From: Thermodesulfobacteriota bacterium
GTDB taxonomy: Bacteria; Desulfobacterota_D; UBA1144; Nemesobacterales; CSP1-2
Assembly: GCA_049682815.1 (NCBI GenBank)
Contig: JBAUII010000078.1
Location: 37,763-101,762 of the forward strand
Direction: 5' to 3'
DNA length: 64,000 nucleotides
Of this stretch, positions 4,827 through 21,414 are shown one piece after another. Below the pieces are notes generated by a model. That model ran no database searches. It saw nothing but the letters and a program-made list of their open reading frames with translations, and was not told where the DNA came from. The stretch's first letter is position 1. Each line of letters starts with the position of its first letter. Made by a program: the position numbers and the translations under genes.

Positions 4827-5483
4827 CTACGTCGAGACCTTTCTTACGTATATATGTCTCGCAATTTCATCATCTATGGCAATATCTGTTTCTCCAGCTC
4901 TCAATACATATGCAGGTTGTTTTTGGTGGAGGACGATCTCCGCTCCAGGAATGATTCCCAGGTTGGTGAGTTGATGCAATCTTCTATGGTGCCTTGGTAC
5001 TAAAAAGATTATCTTTACCCTATCTCCGGGAATTACTTTGGCGAGTGGAACGACAAATTCTTTGGTTTCCTCTTTAAAAATTCCGCAGCATTCTCCCGGA
5101 GGGATCGGCTTTTCATGTGGACAAAACCTGGGATGTCCAAGGAAAGCGCAAATGGATTCCGTGACCTCTGAACCGAGAATATGTTCAAGCTCACAGGCCG
5201 TAGAGTCCATTTCACTGGAGCCTACCTGGAGTATGTCTTTAAGAAGCTTCTCCGCTAGACGGTGACGCCTGACTATCATTTTCGCCCTCGCGTCGCCCAT
5301 TATGGTAAGGCTTATTTTACCGTCAATATCACTTATAAGATCTGCTTCCAGAGCACATCTGATAGCTTTTTTCACGTCTTTATTCCAAGACCTTATGTAG
5401 ATTGTTTCTTCGTCTTGGATGCCTTCCTCCCTGAGCTTCCAGATAAGCTCAAGCAGTTCATCGCTTTCTTCATCGTATTTCAT
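4827..5483 (-). CDS. DtxR/IdeR-family metal (iron)-dependent transcriptional repressor with C-terminal FeoA/SH3-like domain
   Basis: The N-terminal wHTH and metal-binding regions resemble DtxR. The C-terminal part (VVPLAKVIPGDRVKII...GIIPGAEIVL) is FeoA/SH3-like. The gene sits downstream of feoB. Confidence 0.8.
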   Translation of the reverse strand: MKYDEESDELLELIWKLREEGIQDEETIYIRSWNKDVKKAIRCALEADLISDIDGKISLTIMGDARAKMIVRRHRLAEKLLKDILQVGSSEMDSTACELEHILGSEVTESICAFLGHPRFCPHEKPIPPGECCGIFKEETKEFVVPLAKVIPGDRVKIIFLVPRHHRRLHQLTNLGIIPGAEIVLHQKQPAYVLRAGETDIAIDDEIARHIYVRKVST

Positions 5484-5692
5484 GCTCTTCCCTCTTGTTT
5501 AAAGAATTTTTTTAGCCACAAAATAAGTCTTGACTCCTGGGGGAAGGAGTATCCGCATCTCGGGCAGCAGACCAACAGGCAGTCTCCTATACTTATCTGG
5601 CAGCTTATGCATCTTTCCCTTCCCTCTTCCTTATAAAATTCCTCTCCACACAAGGGGCAGGAGATTAGATTCCGAGGCTCCACAGTATCCAA
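5480..5692 (-). CDS. Small Cys-rich zinc-ribbon protein, possible Feo accessory
   Basis: The 70-aa ORF carries CPLC..CISC..CCPRC. It overlaps the feoB 3' end by 28 nt and the dtxR start by 4 nt. No RBS was evaluated, so confidence is low. Confidence 0.4.
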   Translation of the reverse strand: MDTVEPRNLISCPLCGEEFYKEEGRERCISCQISIGDCLLVCCPRCGYSFPQESRLILWLKKFFKQEGRA

Positions 5693-7629
5693 TTCGTCAT
5701 ACCTCCCACAATAATGGCTATGAAAAGAACTATCGCGACTATAATAAGGGCGGTTCTGAGCCCTTGTTCCTTTATAATGATTAGAAAGTTGGCAACACAG
5801 GGGACAAATAGCGTAATCGTAACAAGACTTACTAAAACCTGATGGCTGCTCAAGTATCCGCCCTGTTGAAGATCGAAAAGACCGGCAGCACCGTAGTCTC
5901 TTCTCAGGAATCCGATTAAAAAGGCATTCGTAGCCTCTTTGGGAAGGTCAAGGAATTTTACTACGACCGGTGAAGCCAGATTTTGTAAAAATCCAAGAAC
6001 CTTTAACCTATCCAAGACAAAAAGAATTATCGTTCCCAAGACAAACAGTGGGACCGCTTCTTTCAAATACCATTCGAGTCTCGCAACAGTCTTAATGATT
6101 ACGTTACCAATCTGTGGAATCCTTATGGGCGGAACCTCAATGATAAGATCTCGGCTTTCTCCTTTTACGAAGTAAGAAGCAAGGAAGCCAACTGTAAAAA
6201 GAACAATACAAATTTCTACCCCCCAAAAGAAAATACCCCACCGAGGTAGAGTAGAAGCCATAGCAAACACCACAGCCAGCTGGGCCGAGCACGGGATTCC
6301 TACAGCCAGAAGAAATATCACAATTAGCCTTTCCTTTTTCGTCTCGAGCATCCTAGTGGTAAGGGTTGCCATTGTGTCACATCCCAGCCCCAGTACCATC
6401 GGGAGTACAACTTTTCCATTTAGACCCATTAACTTAAACACCCTGTCAACCATAATGGCCAGCCTTGGGAGGTATCCGGAATCTTCGAGGATACTAAAAA
6501 AGATGAAAAATGTGCAGATTACGGGAAAGATTATTGCGAGCGAGTATGTCAGCGCCATAGTAATTATTCCAAAATCGCCTACGAGAAAATCAATCAATAT
6601 CTTGTAGGGAATAATCTTGGGTATGGCTATTTTAAAAAAGGGGTTTATATATCCTTCAAAGACGGTTACCTCCAAGAAATCAACGAATGTTCCTGCCCCC
6701 AGTTTTCCCACAAAGAGGTATGCGAGGTAAAGTATTAGAATTAATATAGGGATCCCAAATAGAGGATGAGTCGATGTCCGTCCTAAAAGATCCAGGGTTC
6801 GGTTGTCTGATTTAAAAGAAGGAGTTGATACCTTCTGAACGATTTCTCTTGCGAGCTCAAGCCTCTTCAGACCGATGAAATAGCTTATAGGATATTCCCT
6901 GGAGCCGAGCTTTGAGAGTGGATCAAGTCCGGCAATCGAGTCTAGCTTTTCTTTAGGAATTCTGCTAATAATGTTCTCATCCATGTTGCAGTCGCCTGAT
7001 ACAATAGAAAGACCTATAAATCTTGAGAAATGAGGGTTTGATAGAATTTTTTTCATTTCGTCTAACATTCCTTCTATAGCTTGAGAGTAAGAAACTCTCA
7101 GTTGAGGGATAGTCGAATTTACAAGTTCGTTCTTAATTCCTTCTATTCCTTTTCTTTCGATAGCCACAGTCGGAACGATAGGAACCCCAAGTTTCTGAGA
7201 GAGCTTTGCTATGTTAATGTCGACTCCTCTGTGTTGCGCTTCATCCATCATATTCAACACTATGAGTAGGGGAAGTCCCATTTCTGCAATCTGGGTTGTT
7301 ATATACAGACCCCTCTCCAGGTTTTTAGCGTCTATAACCTGAATTATAAAGTTAGCTTCACCTTCTAATAAAATATTTCTAACAACCCTTTCGTCTTCCG
7401 ACGTCGGCGTCAGGCTATTAATCCCGGGCGTATCGATAAGAGAAATCGTTTCTGACCCGATTTTCATCTCTCCCGAGGTTATCTCGACCGTTGTTCCGGG
7501 ATAATTTGAAACCGTAACGTATCTCTTGGTAAGCGAACCAAAGAGTAAGCTCTTTCCGACATTTGGGTTACCAATTAGAGCAGCCTTCTTTGGATGAGCC
7601 GGGTTCTCAGACTTGGTTTTGTTAAACAT
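5665..7629 (-). CDS. feoB: Ferrous iron transporter FeoB (G-protein domain plus membrane permease)
   Basis: The N-terminal GTPase has G1 GNPNVGKS and a DTPG motif. Long polytopic C-terminal domain; 654 aa. Confidence 0.9.
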   Translation of the reverse strand: MFNKTKSENPAHPKKAALIGNPNVGKSLLFGSLTKRYVTVSNYPGTTVEITSGEMKIGSETISLIDTPGINSLTPTSEDERVVRNILLEGEANFIIQVIDAKNLERGLYITTQIAEMGLPLLIVLNMMDEAQHRGVDINIAKLSQKLGVPIVPTVAIERKGIEGIKNELVNSTIPQLRVSYSQAIEGMLDEMKKILSNPHFSRFIGLSIVSGDCNMDENIISRIPKEKLDSIAGLDPLSKLGSREYPISYFIGLKRLELAREIVQKVSTPSFKSDNRTLDLLGRTSTHPLFGIPILILILYLAYLFVGKLGAGTFVDFLEVTVFEGYINPFFKIAIPKIIPYKILIDFLVGDFGIITMALTYSLAIIFPVICTFFIFFSILEDSGYLPRLAIMVDRVFKLMGLNGKVVLPMVLGLGCDTMATLTTRMLETKKERLIVIFLLAVGIPCSAQLAVVFAMASTLPRWGIFFWGVEICIVLFTVGFLASYFVKGESRDLIIEVPPIRIPQIGNVIIKTVARLEWYLKEAVPLFVLGTIILFVLDRLKVLGFLQNLASPVVVKFLDLPKEATNAFLIGFLRRDYGAAGLFDLQQGGYLSSHQVLVSLVTITLFVPCVANFLIIIKEQGLRTALIIVAIVLFIAIIVGGMTNWILWSLGI

Positions 7630-8039: not shown

Positions 8040-8507
8040 CTATTTTGCGTATGGAGTTGCAGACAACGGTTGAGGCGGTTTCAAATTAGCATCCTGACTA
8101 ATAGGAGCTTTCTCAAGGTGTATCCGTTCTACTCTCTGTATCTTGTCATCTGCATCATAGTAGATAACAAATCTACCAGTTTCTTCCTTGCCAGCCACAG
8201 CTTCGACAGGCGTCCCGATTACTTCCCATAGTCCTAATGTGAGTACATCCATCACACCGTGACCAATAGCTCTACCGGCTGATGGATCATTCCCTTTTAC
8301 GATCAGATAAGTATCTACCCAATTACCGTCTTTATCTCTCATCTCTGCATCAGGCATCCCTACTTTGGCAATCACGAATGACCTCTCTGCGCCGTTATAG
8401 AAGACACTTGTATCCTTCTGTTCATTGCCGGAGAGTGCCATCCCGACAGAACATCCTGAACATAATATTACTAAAAGAATAACCCCAACTATTTTAAGGC
8501 GTCTCAT
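8040..8507 (-). CDS. Hypothetical lipoprotein
   Basis: Signal peptide with a lipobox (LVILCSGCS). GGAGG RBS upstream. No recognisable catalytic motifs. Confidence 0.5.
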   Translation of the reverse strand: MRRLKIVGVILLVILCSGCSVGMALSGNEQKDTSVFYNGAERSFVIAKVGMPDAEMRDKDGNWVDTYLIVKGNDPSAGRAIGHGVMDVLTLGLWEVIGTPVEAVAGKEETGRFVIYYDADDKIQRVERIHLEKAPISQDANLKPPQPLSATPYAK

Positions 8508-8809: not shown

Positions 8810-9157
8810 TTACGCAGTGAGTTGCGGAAGGTCCAAGCACTTCTTTTTACATCTGACTTTGCCGCTATCAAATGCCGAACACTGAGTAACATCATCGTAT
8901 TCTCTGAAAGTGAAGATACTGGGCTCGAATTTCGCTGAAACAACCTTTTTTTTAAAAGGGCAGAAAAAGGTTTTCAGCACTAGTCGCTTCGATATTGAGA
9001 TAGCTTCTGCCCCAAAGTAAACAAGAATGACTATCATGCCCAATAGAGCAATAAGCATTGCACCTACGGCATAAGGAGCCAATAATGCGATAAATATAAC
9101 AGCAGCGATACCTTTCATAATTTGCATCATCTTATTTATTACCTCCCTGGTGTTCAC
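8810..9157 (-). CDS. Hypothetical small membrane protein (2 TM, Cys-containing C-terminal tail)
   Basis: The 115-aa ORF has two hydrophobic helices. Dyad-rich putative operator region upstream. Confidence 0.4.
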   Translation of the reverse strand: MNTREVINKMMQIMKGIAAVIFIALLAPYAVGAMLIALLGMIVILVYFGAEAISISKRLVLKTFFCPFKKKVVSAKFEPSIFTFREYDDVTQCSAFDSGKVRCKKKCLDLPQLTA

Positions 9158-9915: not shown

Positions 9916-10575
9916 ATGAATCTCCTTTTAGCTCTGACTTTTATATCAATGCTTGGTTCGCTCTATGCTTCATTTATTTACGCGCCGACCGAGAGGATCA
10001 TGGGACCGATCCAAAAAATTTTTTATTTCCATATGGGAACCGTTTGGGTCGCCACAATTTCATTTGTAATCGTGTTTGTTGCAAGTATACAGTATCTGAG
10101 AAAAGAAAGTCGCAACTGGGATATTCTGGCCTACTCTTCTGCTGAAATAGGGGTGGTTTTTATCACGCTTACGATAGTATCGGGTAGTATTTGGGCAAAA
10201 CCAATCTGGGGGACCTGGTGGACTTGGGATCCGCAACTCACTACTACGTTTATTCTCTGGATTCTCTACATTGTTTATATGATAGTGCGTTCATCTGCGG
10301 GTAATGATATTAGGAAGGCAAAATTTGCCGCTGTTTTCGGGATTATCGCGTTTTTAGACTTGCCGCTTGTTTACATTTCGGCGAGAGTTATGCGTGGAAT
10401 CTCCCCGGTTGTGTTTGGATCCCGTGGGGGTGGTATTGCGCCGGAGATGATGGTAGCATTGCTCGTTACACTAGTAGCTTTTACTTTTTTGTTCATCTTG
10501 ATACTTAAGCATAGAGTAGAACTAGAAATCATGAAAGATAATATCCTTAGGATTAGATTAATGGAGGCAAAGTAA
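9916..10575 (+). CDS. ccmC: Heme exporter protein CcmC (System I cytochrome c maturation)
   Basis: Six TM helices. The tryptophan-rich WWD-type motif WGTWWTWDPQLT is present. Confidence 0.85.
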   Translation: MNLLLALTFISMLGSLYASFIYAPTERIMGPIQKIFYFHMGTVWVATISFVIVFVASIQYLRKESRNWDILAYSSAEIGVVFITLTIVSGSIWAKPIWGTWWTWDPQLTTTFILWILYIVYMIVRSSAGNDIRKAKFAAVFGIIAFLDLPLVYISARVMRGISPVVFGSRGGGIAPEMMVALLVTLVAFTFLFILILKHRVELEIMKDNILRIRLMEAK

Positions 10576-10581
10576 AAGCAG

Positions 10582-10725
10582 ATGTCTTATCTTTTCTGGT
10601 CGCAAGTAATTTTTTGGATTGTACTTTTGCTATATGTTTATTATCTTATTAGAAAAAACCATAACTTGAAAATTCAGTTAGAGTCTATCGAGTCTTCTCT
10701 GAATTCGAATGAAGGAAGTCGGTAG
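10582..10725 (+). CDS. ccmD: Probable CcmD (small single-TM heme-exporter subunit)
   Basis: A 47-aa ORF (MSYLFWSQVIFWIVLLLYVYYLIRKN...) sits between ccmC and ccmE. It has a single hydrophobic helix followed by basic residues. It is below the ORF-track size cutoff. Confidence 0.45.
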   Translation: MSYLFWSQVIFWIVLLLYVYYLIRKNHNLKIQLESIESSLNSNEGSR

Positions 10726-10752: not shown

Positions 10753-11169
10753 TTGATGCTAAAAGGAAAGACAAAATTCATAGTAGCAATCACTGTGATC
10801 GCAGTTGCTATAGCATACCTTGTTTACGGTGGCGTCAATGATACGATGATCTACTATCTTACCGTTCAGGAATTGAAGGACAAGGTACCTTCAGTGTATA
10901 AGCAAAAAGTAAGGGTCTCGGGAAAGGTTGTTCCCGGATCGATAAGGAATGAGATTGATGGAAGTCTAGAGTTTACGATTGCGGACGGGGAAGAAACATT
11001 GGATGTAAAGTATAAGGGAATAGTTCCGGATATATTTAAGGACGACGTCGAAGCGGTCGTTGAGGGTCTATATACACCGGATAACGTATTTGTGGCTAGT
11101 TTGTTGTTGGCCAAATGTCCCACCAAGTACGAATCCACAGATTCTTTAAAAAGGTCTGAAAATATATAA
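10753..11169 (+). CDS. ccmE: Heme chaperone CcmE, variant type with CxxxY (LAKCPTKY) in place of the canonical HxxxY heme-binding motif
   Basis: N-terminal TM followed by an OB-fold domain (VRVSGKVVPGSI...). The C-terminal motif has Cys where His130 normally occurs. Confidence 0.8.
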   Translation: MMLKGKTKFIVAITVIAVAIAYLVYGGVNDTMIYYLTVQELKDKVPSVYKQKVRVSGKVVPGSIRNEIDGSLEFTIADGEETLDVKYKGIVPDIFKDDVEAVVEGLYTPDNVFVASLLLAKCPTKYESTDSLKRSENI

Positions 11170-11170
11170 A

Positions 11171-13171
11171 ATGGTCGAAACTGGAAGTATTTCTATATTT
11201 TTAGCTTTTATACTCTCCGTCTACGTGATATTTGCTTCGGTCGTTGGTGCGAAAACCAGAAGGAATGATTTAATCAAAAGTGCCGAGAACGGTTCACTTG
11301 CAGTCTGCTTTCTTCTAATCATAGCAGCCGTCTCGTTGATACATGCTCTCCTGAATCTAGATTTCAGCCTTAAATATGTCGCCTTAAACGCCAGCAGCGA
11401 TCTCTCTACTATTTACAGGATAACAGCATTGTGGGCGGGCCAGGCTGGATCCCTGCTTCTTTGGTGCCTAATACTCTCAGTATATACATCCCTTGTAGTA
11501 ATTCAGAACAGGAGACGAGGCAGATTCACACCATTTGTTATCGCAACACTCGCTGCTGTTTCGACCTTCTTTGTATTTCTTATAGCCTTTGTCGAGAGTC
11601 CTTTTGAAAAGCTACCTTTCGTCGCCGAGGAGGGAAGGGGGCTAAACCCGATTCTGCAGAATGGCTACATGGCGATTCATCCTCTCACCTTATACCTCGG
11701 TTATGTCGGAGTCACAGTACCCTTTGCATTTGGGATGGGTGCTCTTCTGAGCGGCAAGTTGGATGACGAGTGGATAAGACAATGCAGAAAATGGGCATTG
11801 CTTGCATGGACATTCTTAAGCCTTGGTTTGTTGTTGGGTGCAAGGTGGGCCTACTTGGAACTCGGTTGGGGTGGCTATTGGGCATGGGATCCCGTGGAGA
11901 ATGCCGCATTTATGCCATGGCTTGCCGGAACAGCGTTTGTTCACTCGGTAATGATTCAAGAAAAAAGGGGAATGCTGAAGAAGTGGAATTTATCGCTGAT
12001 AATACTCACCTTTTTCCTGGCAATATTTGGCACCTTTGTTACCAGAAGCGGGATAATTTCCTCGGTTCATTCGTTTGCCCAGTCAGACATTGGCCCCTAT
12101 TTTCTGGGTTTTATAGGTTTCATACTTATTTTCTCATTTGCAATGTTCACTCTTAGATTAGATGATCTTAAAAGCGATAATCATTTCGACTCTATTCTAT
12201 CAAGAGAGAGCGCTTTCATATTTAACAACCTTCTTTTTCTGGGTGCCGCTTTTACCGTTTTCCTGGGAACAATATTCCCGATAATATCCGAACTAATTAC
12301 GCGGAACAAGATTCTTGTTGGTCCCCCCTATTTTAATAAAGTGAATGTTCCGATCGGTTTAGTATTGATACTTCTGATGGGAATCGGTCCGTTAATTTCC
12401 TGGAGAAAGGCCTCAAAGGATAATTTAGTCAGGAATTTCACGTTTCCAGTAGCAATCGGAGTTCTGACATCTGTAATCTTATTCGTTTTCGGAATCAGAC
12501 ACATTTATGCTCTTATTTCTTTCGGCCTGTGCGCGTATGTAACTGCAACCGTGTTTGTCGAATACTACAGAGGGATAAGAGTCCGAGTTAGAAGAGGGGA
12601 AAATTATTTGCGAGCCTTCGGGAGACTCGTATCCAAAAACCGTAGGAGATACGGTGGCTACATAGTCCATCTCGGAGTTGTTTTGGTAGTGATCGGTATA
12701 ACTGGCTCATCTGTTTTTGTTAAGCAAAAAGAGGCAACACTGAAACCAGGGGAATCCATGAGCGTTGGTGATTTTACTTTGAGCTTCGGTGATCTCAACC
12801 AGTATACGACAGATGCGAAACATGTGACAGCCGCTAGCCTCTCAGTATATAATGGCGAAAGAAAGATCGGAGCAATCGTTCCTGAAAAGAATGTGTATAT
12901 TTACTCCGGAAATCGTGAGATCAATCAAGAAACTGAGGTTGCGATTCTCTCTTCATTTACACATGACCTCTATGTAATACTTTCAAGTTTTCAAGATGGT
13001 AGCGCTAGCTTCAGGGTTTTAATAAATCCAATGGTATCGTGGATCTGGGCCGGCGGCGTGGTTCTACTTTTGGGGGCAATCGTTACTATGTGGCCTACTC
13101 CCAGCAAAAAGGAACAGGAAGTACTTGTCAGATATAGTATAGGATCAAAGGACAGGACGGCAGAAGTTTAG
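11171..13171 (+). CDS. ccmF: Cytochrome c-type biogenesis protein CcmF (heme lyase component)
   Basis: 666 aa and polytopic. WWD-type motif LGWGGYWAWDPVEN. The start codon follows the ccmE stop by 1 nt. Confidence 0.85.
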   Translation: MVETGSISIFLAFILSVYVIFASVVGAKTRRNDLIKSAENGSLAVCFLLIIAAVSLIHALLNLDFSLKYVALNASSDLSTIYRITALWAGQAGSLLLWCLILSVYTSLVVIQNRRRGRFTPFVIATLAAVSTFFVFLIAFVESPFEKLPFVAEEGRGLNPILQNGYMAIHPLTLYLGYVGVTVPFAFGMGALLSGKLDDEWIRQCRKWALLAWTFLSLGLLLGARWAYLELGWGGYWAWDPVENAAFMPWLAGTAFVHSVMIQEKRGMLKKWNLSLIILTFFLAIFGTFVTRSGIISSVHSFAQSDIGPYFLGFIGFILIFSFAMFTLRLDDLKSDNHFDSILSRESAFIFNNLLFLGAAFTVFLGTIFPIISELITRNKILVGPPYFNKVNVPIGLVLILLMGIGPLISWRKASKDNLVRNFTFPVAIGVLTSVILFVFGIRHIYALISFGLCAYVTATVFVEYYRGIRVRVRRGENYLRAFGRLVSKNRRRYGGYIVHLGVVLVVIGITGSSVFVKQKEATLKPGESMSVGDFTLSFGDLNQYTTDAKHVTAASLSVYNGERKIGAIVPEKNVYIYSGNREINQETEVAILSSFTHDLYVILSSFQDGSASFRVLINPMVSWIWAGGVVLLLGAIVTMWPTPSKKEQEVLVRYSIGSKDRTAEV

Positions 13172-13236: not shown

Positions 13237-13764
13237 TTGGAAATAATTATCTTATTGGCGATTGTGATTCTTACGGCAGTCTTTATAACGTTACCTTTCT
13301 TCAGAAAAAATACCGAAGTAGAAAACCCCATTGAGCAGAAATCTAATCCTATTGAAAACCCTGCTTTAATAGAGTTGAAAAAGCTTACCTCTGAAAAGGA
13401 ATTACTATACACGGCGTTGAATGATATAGAATTTGATTACGGACTCGGAAAACTATCGAGAGAAGATTATGATGAGCTTAAACGAGAATACCAAGCAAAA
13501 GCTGTGTCCGTACTGAAAGAGATAGACGAAATTAGTAAAGGTCTACATTCTACAGAGTTAGAAGATGAATTAGAAAAAGAGATAACGGCGATAAGGAAGT
13601 CAAAATCACACGATGAAAATGAAATCGAAGATGAAATTTTGAAAGCCCGAAAACAGCACAACGATAAAAATAGATATCTAACATGTATTAATTGTGGGAG
13701 GCAATACAGCGCAGGGGATCTTTTTTGTTCAAGGTGCGGTATCGGCCTAAAAGATGTCAGCTAA
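13237..13764 (+). CDS. Membrane-anchored coiled-coil protein with C-terminal zinc ribbon (CINCG...CSRCG), function unknown
   Basis: N-terminal TM helix, charged coiled-coil region, and CxxC-N12-CxxC at the C-terminus. It is co-oriented with ccmF and overlaps the next gene by 11 nt. Confidence 0.5.
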   Translation: MEIIILLAIVILTAVFITLPFFRKNTEVENPIEQKSNPIENPALIELKKLTSEKELLYTALNDIEFDYGLGKLSREDYDELKREYQAKAVSVLKEIDEISKGLHSTELEDELEKEITAIRKSKSHDENEIEDEILKARKQHNDKNRYLTCINCGRQYSAGDLFCSRCGIGLKDVS

Positions 13765-15241
13765 GGTACTTAATTTCGAAGGAATAAATAATTTGTTTGT
13801 TATCTCGACGATAGCATTTTTGCTTCTTTCGTCTACGGTCTTTTTCGGAGTAGATATCTTTGCTCAGGTGGATGCCGAGAAGGCGGATCTTGGAAAGGAT
13901 CTATTTATCCAAAATCGATGCGTTAATTGTCATACAATTGGCAGGGGTAGATTTGTAGGCCCGGACCTGGCAGGGATCAGCAGCAGATACAGTAAAGATG
14001 AAATCAAGCAATGGATAGAGAATCCTCAACAGGTGTACCAGGCCAAGGGTAAAATGCCCATAAACGAGGGCTATCCTCCGATGCCTCCGCTACAGGTTCC
14101 GCAAGCTCATATTGACGTCATTGCAGACTATCTTTTTACTAAAAAACCCGTTCAATCTACAAAAGATTATGGTGATATTAAGGGTAGTGTCACGAACAAG
14201 ACTGGTGACGAGCCACCCGTTGGAATCGAAGTTGCCCTGCGTGAAATGTTAGGAGATCGTGTTACGGATGAAAAAACACTTATGACAGACAAAAATGGAG
14301 CTTTTGAATTTAGAGATTTACCCTGGAACCGTAGCTATACGATTACCCTAAATTATAGGGGCACCGAATATGTAACGGATAAGTTGGTTTTTTACCCGGA
14401 TGAGGATACGAAGACTATTGAGCTACCCGTATATGAACCAACCGAAAGTGACAGTGAGATAATAATAAAACAAGCTCATATGATCTTACAGGTCTCTACG
14501 GACTCGATTTCGGTCGCAGAATTATTGATGTTTGAAAACAGAGATAAAAAGATATACGTCGGTTCTGACGTGGTTGATGGGAAAAGGGAGACCTTAAAGT
14601 TTCGTCTACCCAGTGATGCCAGCAATATTCAGTTCATTCATGGCATTACAAGTGAAAACGTTGTTCAAACCGAATCTGGATTTTCGGATACGTCTCCGGT
14701 CTGGCCGGGTGCTAGAAGGGTGGTTTACACCTATACAATTCCATTTAAATCCGGGAACAATGTGATCGAAGACAGGGTGAATTATCCCACTGATAGTTTC
14801 CTGCTTCTTATTTCCGATTCGGCTGAGAAAGTGACTGTGGAGGGCCTTAGTGGAGGGGATGTCGTAGATATTCAAAATGAAAAGTTTGTTCAGTGGACTG
14901 GCAGCAATCTAAAACCTGGCTCTTCAATAGTGGTAACTATAAATAAATCGTTTGATCGTGAATCGATCGCTAAGTGGGCTGCATTTTGCGTGGTTTTACT
15001 TGTTGTTGGGGGTGGAATCCTATACGCATTTGTTTTCAAAGGAAAGGGGTTTGATAGAAATGAAAGCAAGAAAACTTTGAGTGATATTGAAAAGGAAAGG
15101 GCTATGTTGATACAGGACATTGCGGAGCTCGACGATAGATTTGAGAGTGGAGGGTTGGATGAGGAAATATATAGAAGGGCGCGTGCGGAGAAAAAAGGGA
15201 GATTAATTAAACTGGTTCAGCGAATAGCTGAACTAAGTTAA
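13754..15241 (+). CDS. Membrane-anchored monoheme cytochrome c domain protein with a beta-sandwich (carboxypeptidase-regulatory-like) domain, a second TM helix and a C-terminal coiled coil
   Basis: N-terminal signal/anchor, then a class-I cytochrome c fold (CVNCH ... KMP), then GSVTNKTGDEPP...NGAFEF. A second TM (WAAFCVVLLVVGGGILYAFVF) and a charged coiled-coil tail follow. Confidence 0.6.
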   Translation: MSAKVLNFEGINNLFVISTIAFLLLSSTVFFGVDIFAQVDAEKADLGKDLFIQNRCVNCHTIGRGRFVGPDLAGISSRYSKDEIKQWIENPQQVYQAKGKMPINEGYPPMPPLQVPQAHIDVIADYLFTKKPVQSTKDYGDIKGSVTNKTGDEPPVGIEVALREMLGDRVTDEKTLMTDKNGAFEFRDLPWNRSYTITLNYRGTEYVTDKLVFYPDEDTKTIELPVYEPTESDSEIIIKQAHMILQVSTDSISVAELLMFENRDKKIYVGSDVVDGKRETLKFRLPSDASNIQFIHGITSENVVQTESGFSDTSPVWPGARRVVYTYTIPFKSGNNVIEDRVNYPTDSFLLLISDSAEKVTVEGLSGGDVVDIQNEKFVQWTGSNLKPGSSIVVTINKSFDRESIAKWAAFCVVLLVVGGGILYAFVFKGKGFDRNESKKTLSDIEKERAMLIQDIAELDDRFESGGLDEEIYRRARAEKKGRLIKLVQRIAELS

Positions 15242-16015: not shown

Positions 16016-17545
16016 TTACTTTGTTTGTCCGGCGGTGAAATAAGATGCAATTTCCTTTGTAAGTCCTTGAACCGTGTATGTTCCTGAAATAATCTCAGGT
16101 TCGATTCCAAAACTTCTTATCGTCTCGGCTGTTATTGGTCCAATACATGCAATCGTCGATCGCGAGATGATTTTTTTATCCCTTCCAATCATCGCGAAGA
16201 AGTTTTTAACGGTCGATGAACTTGTAAATGTAATAACATCTATGTAACCGTTCCGGAGCAACTTTCTAACCTTATCGATTTTCAATTTTCCCGGCATCTT
16301 GGTTTCGTAGACGGGAAATACATCGACACGGGCGCCCATTTTTCTGAGTTTCATTGGAAGTATTTTTCTCGCTATCTTTGCCCTGGGTATAAGAACCCGA
16401 CTTCCCTTAACATTGATTTTCTCGAAAAGCTTTATTAAACCTTCAGCCCTGAACTCTTCAGGAATCAAATCCACCTTAATACCCATCTTGTTTATCTCAT
16501 TTTTTGTTTGTTCTCCAATGGCTGCGATCCTTATACCCTTGAGGTCCCTTACATCGCTTTGCTTTTGCCTGAGCCTTTGGAAAAAGAAGGTTACCCCGTT
16601 TACACTCGTAAAAATAAGCCAATTGTAGCGGTCTAAATTCTCAATCGCCTTATCGAATCTGTTCCAAGTCCTGAGAGGTGCCACGTCGATAGTGGGAAAC
16701 TTAATTACCTGTGCTCCTTCCTCTTCTAGGAGTTCGGCAAATATTCTTGCCTGGTTTTTGGCCCTAGTCACCAGAACCGTTTTACCGAAGAGGGGCTTTG
16801 ATTCAAACCAATTTATCTTATCTCTTAAATTAACCACGTCGCCGACCGCGATGATCGACGGGGAAGATATTTTCTTTTCTTTTGATAAGCTAACGATATT
16901 CCCTATAGTTCCCGTGAGCGTTGATTGATTTGGGAGAGTGCCCCAAGTTATAATGGCCACCGGGGTCTCAGGTGACTTCCCCATCTCGATTAGCTTTTTC
17001 ATATTCTGTTCCAGTTTTTCAACTCCCATGAGGAATACCAGTGTTCCTATCTTAGCCAGGGCTTCCCACGGCAGCGAAGTTTTTACCTTTTTTGGGTCTT
17101 CATGGCCTGTAACTACTGCAAACGATGACGAATAATCCCTGTGTGTAAGCGGTATCCCGGCATACGACGTCACCCCTATGGGAGATGATACACCCGGAAT
17201 TACATCAAACCGAATACCGTGCTCTGCCAGTTCAACCGCTTCCTCGCCCCCCCTTCCAAATATAAATGGGTCTCCCCCTTTGAGCCTTGCAACGATTTTC
17301 CCCCCCAGTGCTTTCTTGGTGATTAGCGTGTTGATTTCCTTTTGCGGCATCTCCTTATGGCCTCTTTTTTTCCCAACATATATAATTTCCGCTCCTTCTT
17401 TAGCAAATATAAGCAGTTCTGGGTTTACGAGGTGGTCATATACTATTACTTCCGCCCGCGCCAAGAATTTCTTTCCCTTTAGCGTAAGTAGTTCCGGATC
17501 TCCCGGACCAGCACCAATGAGATGCACTATTCCCTTTTTCATCAT
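16016..17545 (-). CDS. Bifunctional uroporphyrinogen-III C-methyltransferase / uroporphyrinogen-III synthase (CobA-HemD fusion)
   Basis: The N-terminus has the GAGPGDPELLT... SAM-methyltransferase motif. The C-terminal half is HemD-like. Confidence 0.85.
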   Translation of the reverse strand: MMKKGIVHLIGAGPGDPELLTLKGKKFLARAEVIVYDHLVNPELLIFAKEGAEIIYVGKKRGHKEMPQKEINTLITKKALGGKIVARLKGGDPFIFGRGGEEAVELAEHGIRFDVIPGVSSPIGVTSYAGIPLTHRDYSSSFAVVTGHEDPKKVKTSLPWEALAKIGTLVFLMGVEKLEQNMKKLIEMGKSPETPVAIITWGTLPNQSTLTGTIGNIVSLSKEKKISSPSIIAVGDVVNLRDKINWFESKPLFGKTVLVTRAKNQARIFAELLEEEGAQVIKFPTIDVAPLRTWNRFDKAIENLDRYNWLIFTSVNGVTFFFQRLRQKQSDVRDLKGIRIAAIGEQTKNEINKMGIKVDLIPEEFRAEGLIKLFEKINVKGSRVLIPRAKIARKILPMKLRKMGARVDVFPVYETKMPGKLKIDKVRKLLRNGYIDVITFTSSSTVKNFFAMIGRDKKIISRSTIACIGPITAETIRSFGIEPEIISGTYTVQGLTKEIASYFTAGQTK

Positions 17546-19925: not shown

Positions 19926-20510
19926 ATGCAGATGGAAACTGATATCGAGCTCATGAGGAGAGTCAAATCAGGGGACGACAGTGCGTTCACAGAATTAATG
20001 AAAAGACACTACAAGTCTATTATGAATTATATATATCGTTTTACTAATGATAGAAATGATTCAGAAGACTTAGCCCAAGAAGTCTTTTTAAGGGTTTACC
20101 GATCGGTAAAGGAATACAAACCGCAGGCTAAATTTTCCACATGGCTCTATAAAATTGCAACGAATGTGTGCCTAACTGAAATAAAAGTGAAAGGCAGAAT
20201 GAATAAAGTGAGTTTAGATGAAATTCAGGAGAATAAGCAGGATATCGGAGATTCGAACTCCCCGAGTGGTTATGATTTGATCAACAGAAGGGACATTAAG
20301 GATAGCATTTTTCAAGCATTAAATTCAATACCTGAGAAGGAGAGGATTTCGATTATTCTTTGCAAATACGAAGGGTTGTCCTACGATGAGGTAGCCGGTG
20401 TAATAGGATGCACCGTGGGCGCTGTTAAGACATATATTCATAGAGGAAGAATGAAACTGATCGAAAAATTAAAACCAATTTTGGAAGAGAGGGGAGAAAA
20501 TGAATTGTGA
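19926..20510 (+). CDS. RNA polymerase ECF-type sigma-70 factor
   Basis: The sigma-2 region (DLAQEVFLRVYR) and sigma-4 region (LSYDEVAGVIGCTVGAVKTYIHRGR) are conserved. Confidence 0.85.
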   Translation: MQMETDIELMRRVKSGDDSAFTELMKRHYKSIMNYIYRFTNDRNDSEDLAQEVFLRVYRSVKEYKPQAKFSTWLYKIATNVCLTEIKVKGRMNKVSLDEIQENKQDIGDSNSPSGYDLINRRDIKDSIFQALNSIPEKERISIILCKYEGLSYDEVAGVIGCTVGAVKTYIHRGRMKLIEKLKPILEERGENEL

Positions 20511-20991
20511 GAATTTCAAGGACTTGATACTCGATTACACTATCGATGACCTAGACGAGTCACGGACGCACGAGTTGAAAGTACATTTAGACGTGTGCAA
20601 AGAATGTAATGAATTTCTGTCATTCGCAGACCTAGAATGGAAGTTACTGGATAAATGGGAAGGGATCGAACCAAAAGACGACTATATAACAAAGTTTTGG
20701 GAAAGATCGAATCATCGGGAAGAAGGTCGTAAACCATCGTTATTCAATCTCTTTAACTACCGGGTGCCGAATTGGTCGTATATATCCGTTGTGTCTCTAT
20801 TCCTCATTATCTTTGTCGTTGCAATTGTATATGTGACGACGGAAAATAGTGTAGTTAAGTATACGGAGAAGGACAGAGAGGACGAAGAGCTACTATTCGA
20901 AGTTGACAGAACAATATCTTTCGACAGTGCGGACATGTTGGAGATCTATGGGCTTTGGAAGGTTGGCAACGACAGCAACAAGGGAGGGTAG
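20500..20991 (+). CDS. Putative anti-sigma factor (zinc-finger HxxxCxxC, single TM)
   Basis: It overlaps the sigma gene by 11 nt. HLDVCKEC motif and a central TM helix are present. Confidence 0.6.
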   Translation: MNCENFKDLILDYTIDDLDESRTHELKVHLDVCKECNEFLSFADLEWKLLDKWEGIEPKDDYITKFWERSNHREEGRKPSLFNLFNYRVPNWSYISVVSLFLIIFVVAIVYVTTENSVVKYTEKDREDEELLFEVDRTISFDSADMLEIYGLWKVGNDSNKGG

Positions 20992-20994
20992 GAA

Positions 20995-21414
20995 TTGAAA
21001 AAGACTTGCTTCATTATTTTATCTTTAATCTTGTTTTACTCACTAAACGCTTACAGTCATGGCGGCTTTGGGAGTGCCAAGTGGTGGAAAGATGCCGAAG
21101 TTGTCAAGGAACTTAATTTAACAAACGATCAAGTCAACCTCATAGAGCAAATATTCAACAGTAACAAAGGCCAAATAGCAGACTTGAATTCACTACTAAA
21201 ACAGAAACAATCAGAGTTCCGATCGAAGATCGAAGACCCAAATTCAAGTCGGGATGAAGTTCTGGAACTAAATGATGAGGTGGTGCACTTAAAGACAAAG
21301 TTGAAAAGACTCAGGCTAGATATGTTATTAAAAATAAGAGAAGTACTGACACCGGAACAAAGGCAAAACCTACACAAAATCAGGTTCACCGAATTTAAGA
21401 AGAAACATAAATAA
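20995..21414 (+). CDS. Periplasmic Spy/CpxP-like LTxxQ-motif protein
   Basis: Signal peptide, two LTxxQ motifs (LTNDQ, LTPEQ), helical and basic. Confidence 0.6.
   Translation: MKKTCFIILSLILFYSLNAYSHGGFGSAKWWKDAEVVKELNLTNDQVNLIEQIFNSNKGQIADLNSLLKQKQSEFRSKIEDPNSSRDEVLELNDEVVHLKTKLKRLRLDMLLKIREVLTPEQRQNLHKIRFTEFKKKHK

Follow-up and report, generated by a model that had tools for sequence, protein, structure and literature searches.

A conserved gene pair downstream of ccmF as a candidate CcmI-like accessory subunit of System I* cytochrome c maturation

Gene organization of the ccm cluster and domain composition of ORF1 and ORF2

A 64,000 nt stretch of DNA from a Thermodesulfobacteriota bacterium (contig JBAUII010000078.1; referred to here in its full length as the window) harbours a cluster of cytochrome c maturation (ccm) genes in the order ccmC-D-E-F, followed by two open reading frames (ORFs), designated here ORF1 and ORF2. 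Both were shown to be real and conserved genes, whose family is not lineage-specific but extends over more than ten phyla, and their products probably make up a CcmI-like accessory subunit, split in two, of the CcmF haem lyase in the variant maturation pathway known as System I*. The coordinates of both genes, the 65 nt gap between the ccmF stop codon and the ORF1 start, and the 11 nt overlap between ORF1 and ORF2 were all found to be as described in a first-pass annotation of this DNA, made from the sequence alone. The cluster comprises the following genes (positions are those of the window; values in brackets are E-values):

9916..10575, + strand: ccmC, the haem-handling WWD protein with which the local cluster begins (Pfam Cytochrom_C_asm, 1.9e-28; NCBIfam TIGR01191, 6.6e-31)
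10582..10725, + strand: ccmD-like ORF of 47 aa (MSYLFWSQVIFWIVLLLYVYYLIRKN...), assigned only from its size, its single hydrophobic helix and its position between ccmC and ccmE
10753..11169, + strand: ccmE of the Cys type (KCPTKY, System I*; Pfam CcmE, 1.3e-27; motif read from the translation)
11171..13171, + strand: ccmF, haem lyase (Pfam CcmF_C, 1.5e-67; Cytochrom_C_asm, 1.6e-37)
13237..13764, + strand: ORF1, membrane protein of 175 aa resembling the CcmI N-terminus, with a C-terminal zinc ribbon (67 homologues; AlphaFold2 model with a predicted local distance difference test score, pLDDT, of 78)
13754..15241, + strand: ORF2, 495 aa, with a cytochrome c domain, three β-sandwich units, a transmembrane helix and cytoplasmic helices resembling the CcmI N-terminus

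The 47-aa ORF at 10582–10725 is very likely ccmD, and equivalent genes of 44–53 aa were observed after ccmC in three of the compared loci (L007–L009). No homologues of CcmH, CcmG or CcdA were detected across the whole window or in the Dadabacterial loci, and neither ORF1 nor ORF2 was matched by CcmH (Pfam PF03918; a periplasmic LRCxxC three-helix bundle) or by the CcmG/TlpA thioredoxin (CxxC) in Pfam and NCBIfam searches. An Rfam scan of the whole window returned no matches, promoter and terminator scans yielded counts no higher than those of shuffled sequence, and the sole plus-strand terminator-like site near the end of ccmF (13047–13064) is located inside the ccmF coding sequence. Downstream of ORF2, rsmE and a cobA/hemD fusion gene are encoded on the opposite strand.

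ORF1 starts with a TTG codon preceded by AGGA 8 nt upstream, and its product is 100% identical to, and of equal length as, an NCBI protein from a metagenome-assembled genome (MAG; P0121). Its homologues were collected by word-indexed search, and the following features were assigned:

13237..13314, + strand: transmembrane helix, aa 1–26, ending in the conserved LPFF(R/K)K (AlphaFold2 helix 2–26)
13360..13536, + strand: cytoplasmic helix motif, aa 42–100 (DIEFDYGLGKLSREDY), resembling the CcmI loop and homologous to the ORF2 C-terminus by hhalign
13678..13746, + strand: cytoplasmic zinc ribbon, C150xxC153-N10-C164xxC167 (Pfam Zn_Ribbon_1, 2.1e-5)

Residue P20, at the cytoplasmic end of the transmembrane helix, is invariant across phyla, and the analogous motif of proteobacterial CcmI reads [WY]PL(L/A)(R/K). 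The zinc ribbon, for which a CxxC-N12-CxxC arrangement had been proposed, contains the N10 spacing listed above. It scores 24.6 bits against Pfam PF13240 (cut-off 25), its four Cys residues are invariant in 33 ORF1 homologues, a precomputed PF13240 assignment is attached to many homologues, and it is present in 67 of 80 ORF1-like proteins and absent from the other 13.

For ORF2, of which 202 homologues were retrieved by word-indexed search, the feature assignments are as follows:

13754..13870, + strand: signal peptide or anchor, aa 1–39, with putative cleavage at IFA|Q (conserved A-Q ending the hydrophobic stretch)
13874..14140, + strand: class I cytochrome c domain, aa 41–129 (C56VNCH60, M110; Pfam PF00034, 6.8e-9)
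14168..14431, + strand: transthyretin/CarboxypepD_reg-like β-sandwich, aa 139–226
14459..14947, + strand: double β-sandwich, aa 236–398, with an Ost1/ribophorin I-like and M1-aminopeptidase N-domain-like fold, without a Pfam family
14975..15034, + strand: C-terminal transmembrane helix, aa ~408–427, KWAAFCVVLLVVGGGILYAFVF followed by KGKG (AlphaFold2 helix 402–428)
15056..15235, + strand: cytoplasmic helical hairpin, aa 435–494 (IAELDDRFESGGLDEEIY), resembling the CcmI loop (TIGR03142, hhalign)

The assignment of a CVNCH class I cytochrome c domain was upheld, with 37.4 bits against a PF00034 cut-off of 21.3 establishing family membership, a single CVNCH at aa 56–60, and residues C56, C59, H60 and M110 being invariant in 36 homologues; the best NCBIfam matches of this domain are cytochromes c550 and c551. 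The periplasmic remainder had been described as a single Ig-like domain, of which the β-sandwich character was retained, whereas the AlphaFold2 model (mean pLDDT 82, ~90 in the β module) resolves it into three units, namely the transthyretin-like sandwich (the corresponding Pfam family, PF13620, being a seven-strand β-sandwich with a cut-off of 32.3 bits) and the double sandwich. The ORF2 core is covered by no Pfam or NCBIfam family, and no TPR domain was found in the periplasmic part, either by Pfam and NCBIfam or in the AlphaFold2 model, which consists there of β-sandwiches only. A PDB sequence search with both family profiles retrieved no relatives except generic zinc ribbons and the transthyretin-like SOP4 (E=0.003).

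The earlier proposal of two transmembrane segments in ORF2 holds for the C-terminal helix and is uncertain for the N-terminal one, as the latter ends in the conserved A|Q and corresponds to a regular, cleavable signal peptide in the majority of ORF2 relatives, those without a cytochrome domain possessing clear AxA-type signal peptides; judged from these sequences, mature ORF2 may contain a single transmembrane helix (aa ~408–427). The only Cys pairs of the two proteins are the haem-binding CVNCH, which also holds the sole periplasmic Cys residues, and the cytoplasmic zinc ribbon. Across the ORF2 family, the periplasmic β module has no conserved Cys, His or Met residue, which is indicative of a binding or scaffold role rather than a thiol-redox or haem-ligand role.

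Distribution and genomic context of the pair

In the lineage represented by the window (Dadabacteria, Thermodesulfobacteriota; L001–L004), the order ccmE-ccmF-ORF1-ORF2 is kept at 45–50% identity; as the remaining neighbourhood is also syntenic there, linkage within Dadabacteria alone proves little. Contexts selected by ORF2 homology alone were ccm clusters in all nine cases. L007 (Acidobacteriota) and L092 show the order ccmE-F-H-ORF1-ORF2-ccmABCD, and further ccm contexts selected in this way were those of a deltaproteobacterial MAG (L008), L009, L010, L091 and L093. On Metabacillus plasmid pB218 (L005), identified by tblastn of CcmF against plasmids, the order is ccmE-ccmF-ccmH-hyp117-hyp310-ccmA-B-C-D-tlpA, in which hyp117 is an ORF1 relative without zinc ribbon (ASPFFIKR; LSELEYDYQMGKLPERDY) and hyp310 an ORF2 relative without cytochrome domain.

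The same plasmid encodes, directly upstream of ccmE (L005:6240–6395), a 51-aa protein labelled 'SHOCT domain-containing protein' (LKVRLAQGEISIEEYLKTK), whose N-terminus is Cys-rich (MSCCGS) and whose sequence bears a likeness to the ORF1 and ORF2 helix motif. SHOCT (Pfam PF09851, cut-off 27 bits) was considered as the identity of the helix motif and rejected, as it gave a single match of 18.1 bits, in protein P0245, and none in the window proteins.

A scan for the ORF1 motif [ED][FY]DYx[LM]GKL[SP] in one genome per GTDB species yielded 80 loci (L011–L090), whose genes were mapped by hmmsearch and phmmer. These loci span Dadabacteria, Thermodesulfobacteriota, Acidobacteriota, Chloroflexota, Myxococcota, KSB1/Zhuqueibacter, Calditrichota, Binatia, Schekmanbacteria, Neomarinimicrobiota, Margulisiibacteriota and Bacillota (including an isolate, Radiobacillus sp.), as well as MAGs labelled Cytophagia or Bacteroidetes. 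Genes of the ccm system were present in 78 of them, the other two being short contigs with the pair only. CcmF is encoded immediately upstream of ORF1 in 31 loci, CcmH in another 24 and a thioredoxin in two; immediately downstream, 41 loci have an ORF2-like gene and 27 have CcmA. Three layouts were seen repeatedly: ccmE-F-(H)-(trx)-ORF1-ORF2-ccmABC; (ccmH)-ORF1-ccmABC without ORF2; and ccmE-F-H-ORF1 followed by an ORF of about 245–280 aa.

The second layout was observed in KSB1, Calditrichota and 'Cytophagia' MAGs (L036–L072), where ccmABC is immediately preceded by an ORF1-like gene of 130–145 aa with a zinc ribbon, which itself often follows ccmH. Neither ORF2 nor ccmF is nearby, and L036 has a gene for a P-type metal ATPase upstream; ORF1 can thus occur without ORF2. 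In the third layout, found in Binatia, Margulisiibacteriota and related loci (L074:6650–7471, L087:6420–7259 and L090:6532–7266), the ORF of ~245–280 aa after ORF1 has no Pfam match and is not an ORF2 relative; it may represent an alternative periplasmic partner.

The extent of the ORF2 family was assessed with a profile lacking the cytochrome domain, which was searched against 1.84 billion cluster representatives and retrieved 5230 of these at E<=1e-3, 3317 at E<=1e-10 and 818 at E<=1e-30. Most representatives are ~380–400 aa long and consist of a signal peptide, a transthyretin-like domain, a double β-sandwich, a transmembrane helix and a C-terminal helix, without a cytochrome domain. A word-indexed search with a diverse ORF2 profile had recovered Dadabacterial and Bacillaceae members only, missing this ~390-aa majority. 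One or two N-terminal cytochrome c domains are confined to a minority (dihaem P0332 and P0333, Chloroflexota L088, L056 and Dadabacteria), and the cytochrome c fusion is accordingly a patchy, recurrent but non-universal addition to ORF2. In Myxococcota (L081:6396–8522; also L076, L079 and L080), ORF2 relatives reach 670–730 aa through extra bMG3, Big_1 or CarboxypepD_reg-like domains, so that the periplasmic module is expanded. Database names for the family are 'hypothetical', 'cytochrome c551/c552' and 'carboxypeptidase-like regulatory domain', and literature searches (ccmF with zinc ribbon; Dadabacteria cytochrome c; CcmI in Chloroflexi, Firmicutes or Acidobacteria) returned no paper describing the ORF1/ORF2 pair.

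This distribution lends strong support to an accessory role of the pair in the variant Ccm machinery; the form encoded in the window is a cytochrome c-fused sub-variant. The first-pass annotation had suggested lineage-specific accessory factors; the accessory role is borne out by the 78 of 80 and nine of nine loci that are ccm clusters, while the lineage restriction is not. Three other explanations fit these distribution data poorly.

ORF2 could be a membrane-anchored respiratory cytochrome c that lies near ccmF through conserved synteny only, with ORF1 being unrelated. The database label 'cytochrome c551/c552' agrees with such a function, as do the haem domain, which is the best-conserved part of the protein within Dadabacteria and resembles c550/c551 and CcoO, and the synteny of rsmE and cobA/hemD, which is likewise conserved in Dadabacteria. 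The family core is, however, the non-cytochrome part, as seen in the 818 representatives at E<=1e-30, which mostly lack a cytochrome domain, and relatives reside inside ccm operons of unrelated phyla with otherwise different synteny; this explanation is largely refuted and considered very unlikely.

A transmembrane sensor of redox or haem status, in which a periplasmic haem domain is coupled to a cytoplasmic coiled coil and a zinc ribbon, would correspond to the signalling pair named as an alternative in the first-pass annotation. Periplasmic and cytoplasmic parts are indeed linked by single transmembrane helices, the zinc ribbon is a potential binding site for a partner or for nucleic acid, and a set of genes for an extracytoplasmic function (ECF) sigma factor and a possible anti-sigma factor is located 4.7 kb downstream. 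Conversely, no kinase, cyclase, helix-turn-helix or anti-sigma domain was detected in ORF1 or ORF2 by Pfam and NCBIfam, most relatives lack the haem domain, the zinc ribbon is dispensed with in the 13 ORF1-like proteins mentioned above, the context always consists of ccm structural genes, and in one lineage (L009) ORF1 is fused to CcmF. A signalling function is therefore regarded as highly improbable.

The pair might also replace the thiol-redox components CcmH and CcmG, in line with the lack of CcmH, CcmG and CcdA in the window and in the Dadabacterial loci. This is contradicted by the many operons in which CcmH and thioredoxin are encoded beside the pair (L005, L007, L008, L010, L088, L091 and L092), indicating that the pair does not compensate for their absence, and the periplasmic part contains no conserved CxxC; such a substitution is scarcely credible. 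The occurrence of CcmH in part of the pair-bearing operons is consistent with its reported presence in approximately one-third of System I* bacteria (PMC3601427).

Relationship to CcmI and proposed role at CcmF

The transmembrane helix and helix motif of ORF1 were shown by hhalign, using broad alignments, to be homologous to the C-terminal transmembrane helix and helix of ORF2 (probability 97.3%, E=2.5e-11, 84 columns; E=4.5e-4 with lineage-only alignments). Among 18,950 NCBIfam models, TIGR03142 (CcmI) was the one that matched most members of the broad ORF2 family (14 of 25, best E=1.7e-5), in addition to five of 36 Dadabacterial ORF2 proteins (best E=1.2e-4) and ORF1 relatives from Clostridia (8.9e-6), Radiobacillus (1.9e-5) and others. 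The same stretch of TIGR03142, approximately positions 3–76 (first transmembrane helix and loop), was matched in every case, corresponding to ORF2 aa 408–487 and ORF1 aa 4–88.

When three annotated CcmI N-termini, from Cupriavidus, Psychrobacter and Rhizobium plasmids, were used as references in hhalign, the ORF2 C-terminus was matched with a probability of 95% (E=3.7e-8) and ORF1 with E-values of 2e-5 to 2e-4, as compared with 0.03–0.16 for reversed-sequence controls (0.027 for the ORF2 C-terminus control). An earlier alignment of five CcmI N-termini had been poor, the loop being absent or divergent in Burkholderia and Ruegeria, and gave weak scores for ORF1. CcmI, ORF1 and many ORF2 relatives have in common a [YW]P(L/F) turn where the transmembrane helix reaches the cytoplasm. 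Both ORF1 and the C-terminal unit of ORF2 thus appear to be remotely homologous to the N-terminal module of CcmI, below the NCBIfam cut-off.

Natural fusions connect the pair to CcmF and its two halves to one another. In L009 (4656–7004), a CcmF of 782 aa represents a CcmF::ORF1 fusion, the C-terminal extension of which corresponds to the cytoplasmic part and zinc ribbon of ORF1 (GELESDLRTGILSKDEYDAL, then EIERRVRALR, then CPRCG...FCTSCG). P0245 (L091:1499–3559, 686 aa), encoded after ccmH and a thioredoxin gene, is an ORF1::ORF2 fusion composed of a first transmembrane helix, a cytoplasmic motif with two zinc ribbons, a second transmembrane helix (the former ORF2 signal peptide), the periplasmic β module, a third transmembrane helix and a further cytoplasmic motif. 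Its first four elements reproduce the published topology of CcmI (PMC3884852), with the β module replacing the TPR domain. Apparent CcmF::CcmH (L049:3552–5996, 814 aa) and CcmE::CcmF (L022:3470–5911, 813 aa) fusions were also observed, which are either real or artefacts of ORF calling or frameshifts.

All 59 CcmE proteins adjoining the pair (50 from L011–L090, eight from L001–L010 and one from the window) are of the Cys type, with the motif [KRQSTA]C[PA][ST][KR]Y, while in the canonical Cupriavidus operon with a TPR-containing CcmI, used as a control, CcmE is of the His type. Co-occurrence with CxxxY-type CcmE had been named beforehand as a check on the accessory role, and the outcome agrees with it.

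The same association would be expected if the pair were a haem-chemistry device specific to System I*, helping to release or reduce haem on the CcmE Cys residue, with the ORF2 cytochrome c feeding electrons to the haem of CcmE or CcmF. The occurrence of cytochrome c–ORF2 fusions in several lineages (Dadabacteria, Chloroflexota L088, dihaem P0332/P0333 and L056) is in keeping with such a device, and breakage of the haem–Cys thioether on CcmE is an acknowledged puzzle (PMC3601427). Yet most members have neither a cytochrome domain nor conserved periplasmic Cys, His or Met residues, so that redox chemistry cannot be the core function; moreover, the co-occurrence with Cys-type CcmE may be phylogenetic, and CcmF already possesses its own b-haem for reduction (PMC3884852). 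We consider this alternative unlikely.

The two proteins are thus best viewed as probable halves of a CcmI-like subunit of the CcmF haem lyase. The first-pass annotation had described a cluster without CcmH, CcmG and CcmI; this stands for CcmH and CcmG (and CcdA) throughout the 64 kb, though not quite for CcmI, as the pair itself is CcmI-like. Based on the fusions and by analogy with CcmI biology, each protein would contribute one membrane helix and a cytoplasmic motif resembling the first CcmI module (CcmI-1), by which the pair would dock onto CcmF. ORF1 would provide the cytoplasmic zinc ribbon, and ORF2 the periplasmic working part, i.e. the transthyretin-like domain and double β-sandwich, at the place occupied by the TPR domain in CcmI. 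The most likely task of this β module would be to hold or position either an unfolded apocytochrome or holo-CcmE at the haem site on the periplasmic side of CcmF. More speculatively, and with low confidence, the haem c domain of Dadabacterial ORF2 might serve as a tethered one-electron donor that keeps the transferred haem reduced.

Several observations weigh against assigning the pair to the haem lyase as a CcmI-like subunit. The TIGR03142 cut-off of 29.3 bits is reached neither by ORF2 (10.4 bits, E=0.59) nor by ORF1 (8.4 bits, E=2.5), and their best relatives attain only 26.0 and 24.9 bits, compared with 99.1 bits for a true CcmI (Cupriavidus necator); the CcmI-similar region, furthermore, comprises only a transmembrane and an amphipathic helix, a sequence type prone to spurious matches. 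Many operons, of the KSB1, Calditrichota and Binatia types, contain ORF1 without ORF2, indicating that the two halves are not obligatorily coupled. The exclusive link to Cys-type CcmE may be a mere reflection of shared phylogeny, and the CcmI analogy gives no account of what the zinc ribbon and the cytochrome c domain do. Finally, the Desulfovibrio ccm operon matures cytochromes in Escherichia coli, and Methanosarcina acetivorans ccmABCEF is sufficient in another methanogen, in both cases without the pair (PMC3601427, PMC9084895). As some System I* sets operate without it, the pair would be helpful rather than essential, and may enhance maturation or serve particular substrates, by analogy with CcmI in several organisms.

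The novelty would lie in a CcmI-type subunit with a split architecture and a different periplasmic module, for which no curated family exists. Confirmation as a haem-lyase subunit would revise the parts list of System I*, explain hundreds to thousands of 'hypothetical', 'zinc-ribbon' and 'cytochrome c551' annotations, and define a second solution (β-sandwich versus TPR) for presenting unfolded apocytochromes to CcmF. A bolder version of the proposal is conceivable, although doubtful as a whole: the pair would be an unrecognized, widespread two-subunit component of System I* and the CcmI-type apocytochrome handler that is 'missing' from non-proteobacterial phyla, with an Ost1-like β-sandwich instead of TPR, docked on CcmF via duplicated CcmI-1-like modules, and with the haem c domain of Dadabacteria and a few other lineages acting as physiological reductant. 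If this reading of the haem domain is true, the source of the haem-reducing electrons of Ccm, a long-open question, would become directly testable; cytochrome-fused variants could illuminate the source of reductant in haem attachment, and cultured Bacillaceae carriers offer a route to a genetic test.

Flanking genes and comparison with known systems

Iron- and haem-related genes were observed on both sides of the ccm cluster. The upstream flank (4827–7629, − strand) encodes a DtxR-type repressor with a FeoA domain as well as FeoB, and the downstream flank (16016–17545, − strand) the uroporphyrinogen-III methyltransferase/synthase fusion (cobA/hemD), which, together with rsmE, is kept as a neighbour in related loci. 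Further downstream (19926–21414, + strand), genes for an ECF sigma factor, a 163-aa ORF without Pfam match (possible anti-sigma factor) and an LTXXQ/Spy-like periplasmic protein form a trio that recurs in L001 and L002. Between the upstream flank and ccmC lie an ORF without Pfam match and with a lipoprotein-like N-terminus (8040–8507, − strand), a 115-aa ORF without Pfam match that contains two hydrophobic segments and a Cys-rich tail (8810–9157, − strand), and ~760 nt without a convincing ORF directly upstream of ccmC.

System I* is a variant of Ccm with a Cys-containing CcmE (reviewed in PMC3601427), to which the KCPTKY motif of the window conforms, and the pair-bearing taxa (delta-proteobacteria-like lineages, Chloroflexi and Firmicutes) match its described distribution. 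The published descriptions consulted give its gene set as ccmABCDEF(H)(I), without mention of the ORF1/ORF2 pair. The system is seen as a streamlined Ccm, and whether it has lost CcmH and CcmI or uses other proteins in their place is still open (PMC9084895, PMC3601427).

The haem domain of ORF2 shares CXXCH, a Met ligand and GPDL..(V/I)..RY with Bacillus c550/c551 and CcoO-like class I cytochromes. Membrane-anchored class I cytochromes c are, however, small proteins with an N-terminal or lipid anchor, and do not possess the 360-aa β module, transmembrane helix and CcmI-like tail of ORF2.

Ost1/ribophorin I is a non-catalytic subunit of oligosaccharyltransferase (eukaryotic and archaeal-type), a membrane enzyme that modifies unfolded secreted polypeptides. 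It represents the best fold match of ORF2, with the same architecture of a double β-sandwich, a single transmembrane helix and a cytoplasmic helical domain. The likeness is restricted to architecture, with 9–13% identity and no match to Pfam Ribophorin_I (PF04597), and the TM-scores (template modelling scores) are low, at about 0.25, because the domain arrangement differs; structural matches through the helical hairpin constitute weak evidence. This likeness may have arisen by convergence or be a property of β-sandwiches in general.

CcmI consists of two transmembrane helices joined by a cytoplasmic leucine-zipper loop, together with a periplasmic TPR domain, and forms part of a CcmFHI complex (PMC3884852). 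It is the apocytochrome chaperone of this complex, which carries out haem ligation. Like CcmI/CycH, the pair is encoded directly after ccmF or ccmH in ccm operons, and both systems exhibit a transmembrane helix that closes with [YW]P(L/F) and leads into an amphipathic cytoplasmic helix with the pattern L..EL(D/E).D...G.(I/L)..E.Y. Unlike CcmI, the pair is encoded by two genes, contains a β-sandwich instead of TPR and carries a zinc ribbon on ORF1, while ORF2 possesses an extra C-terminal transmembrane helix, a second copy of the loop motif and, in the lineage of the window, a cytochrome c domain. The two also differ in the company they keep, the pair being found with Cys-type CcmE and CcmI, in the Cupriavidus control, with the His type.

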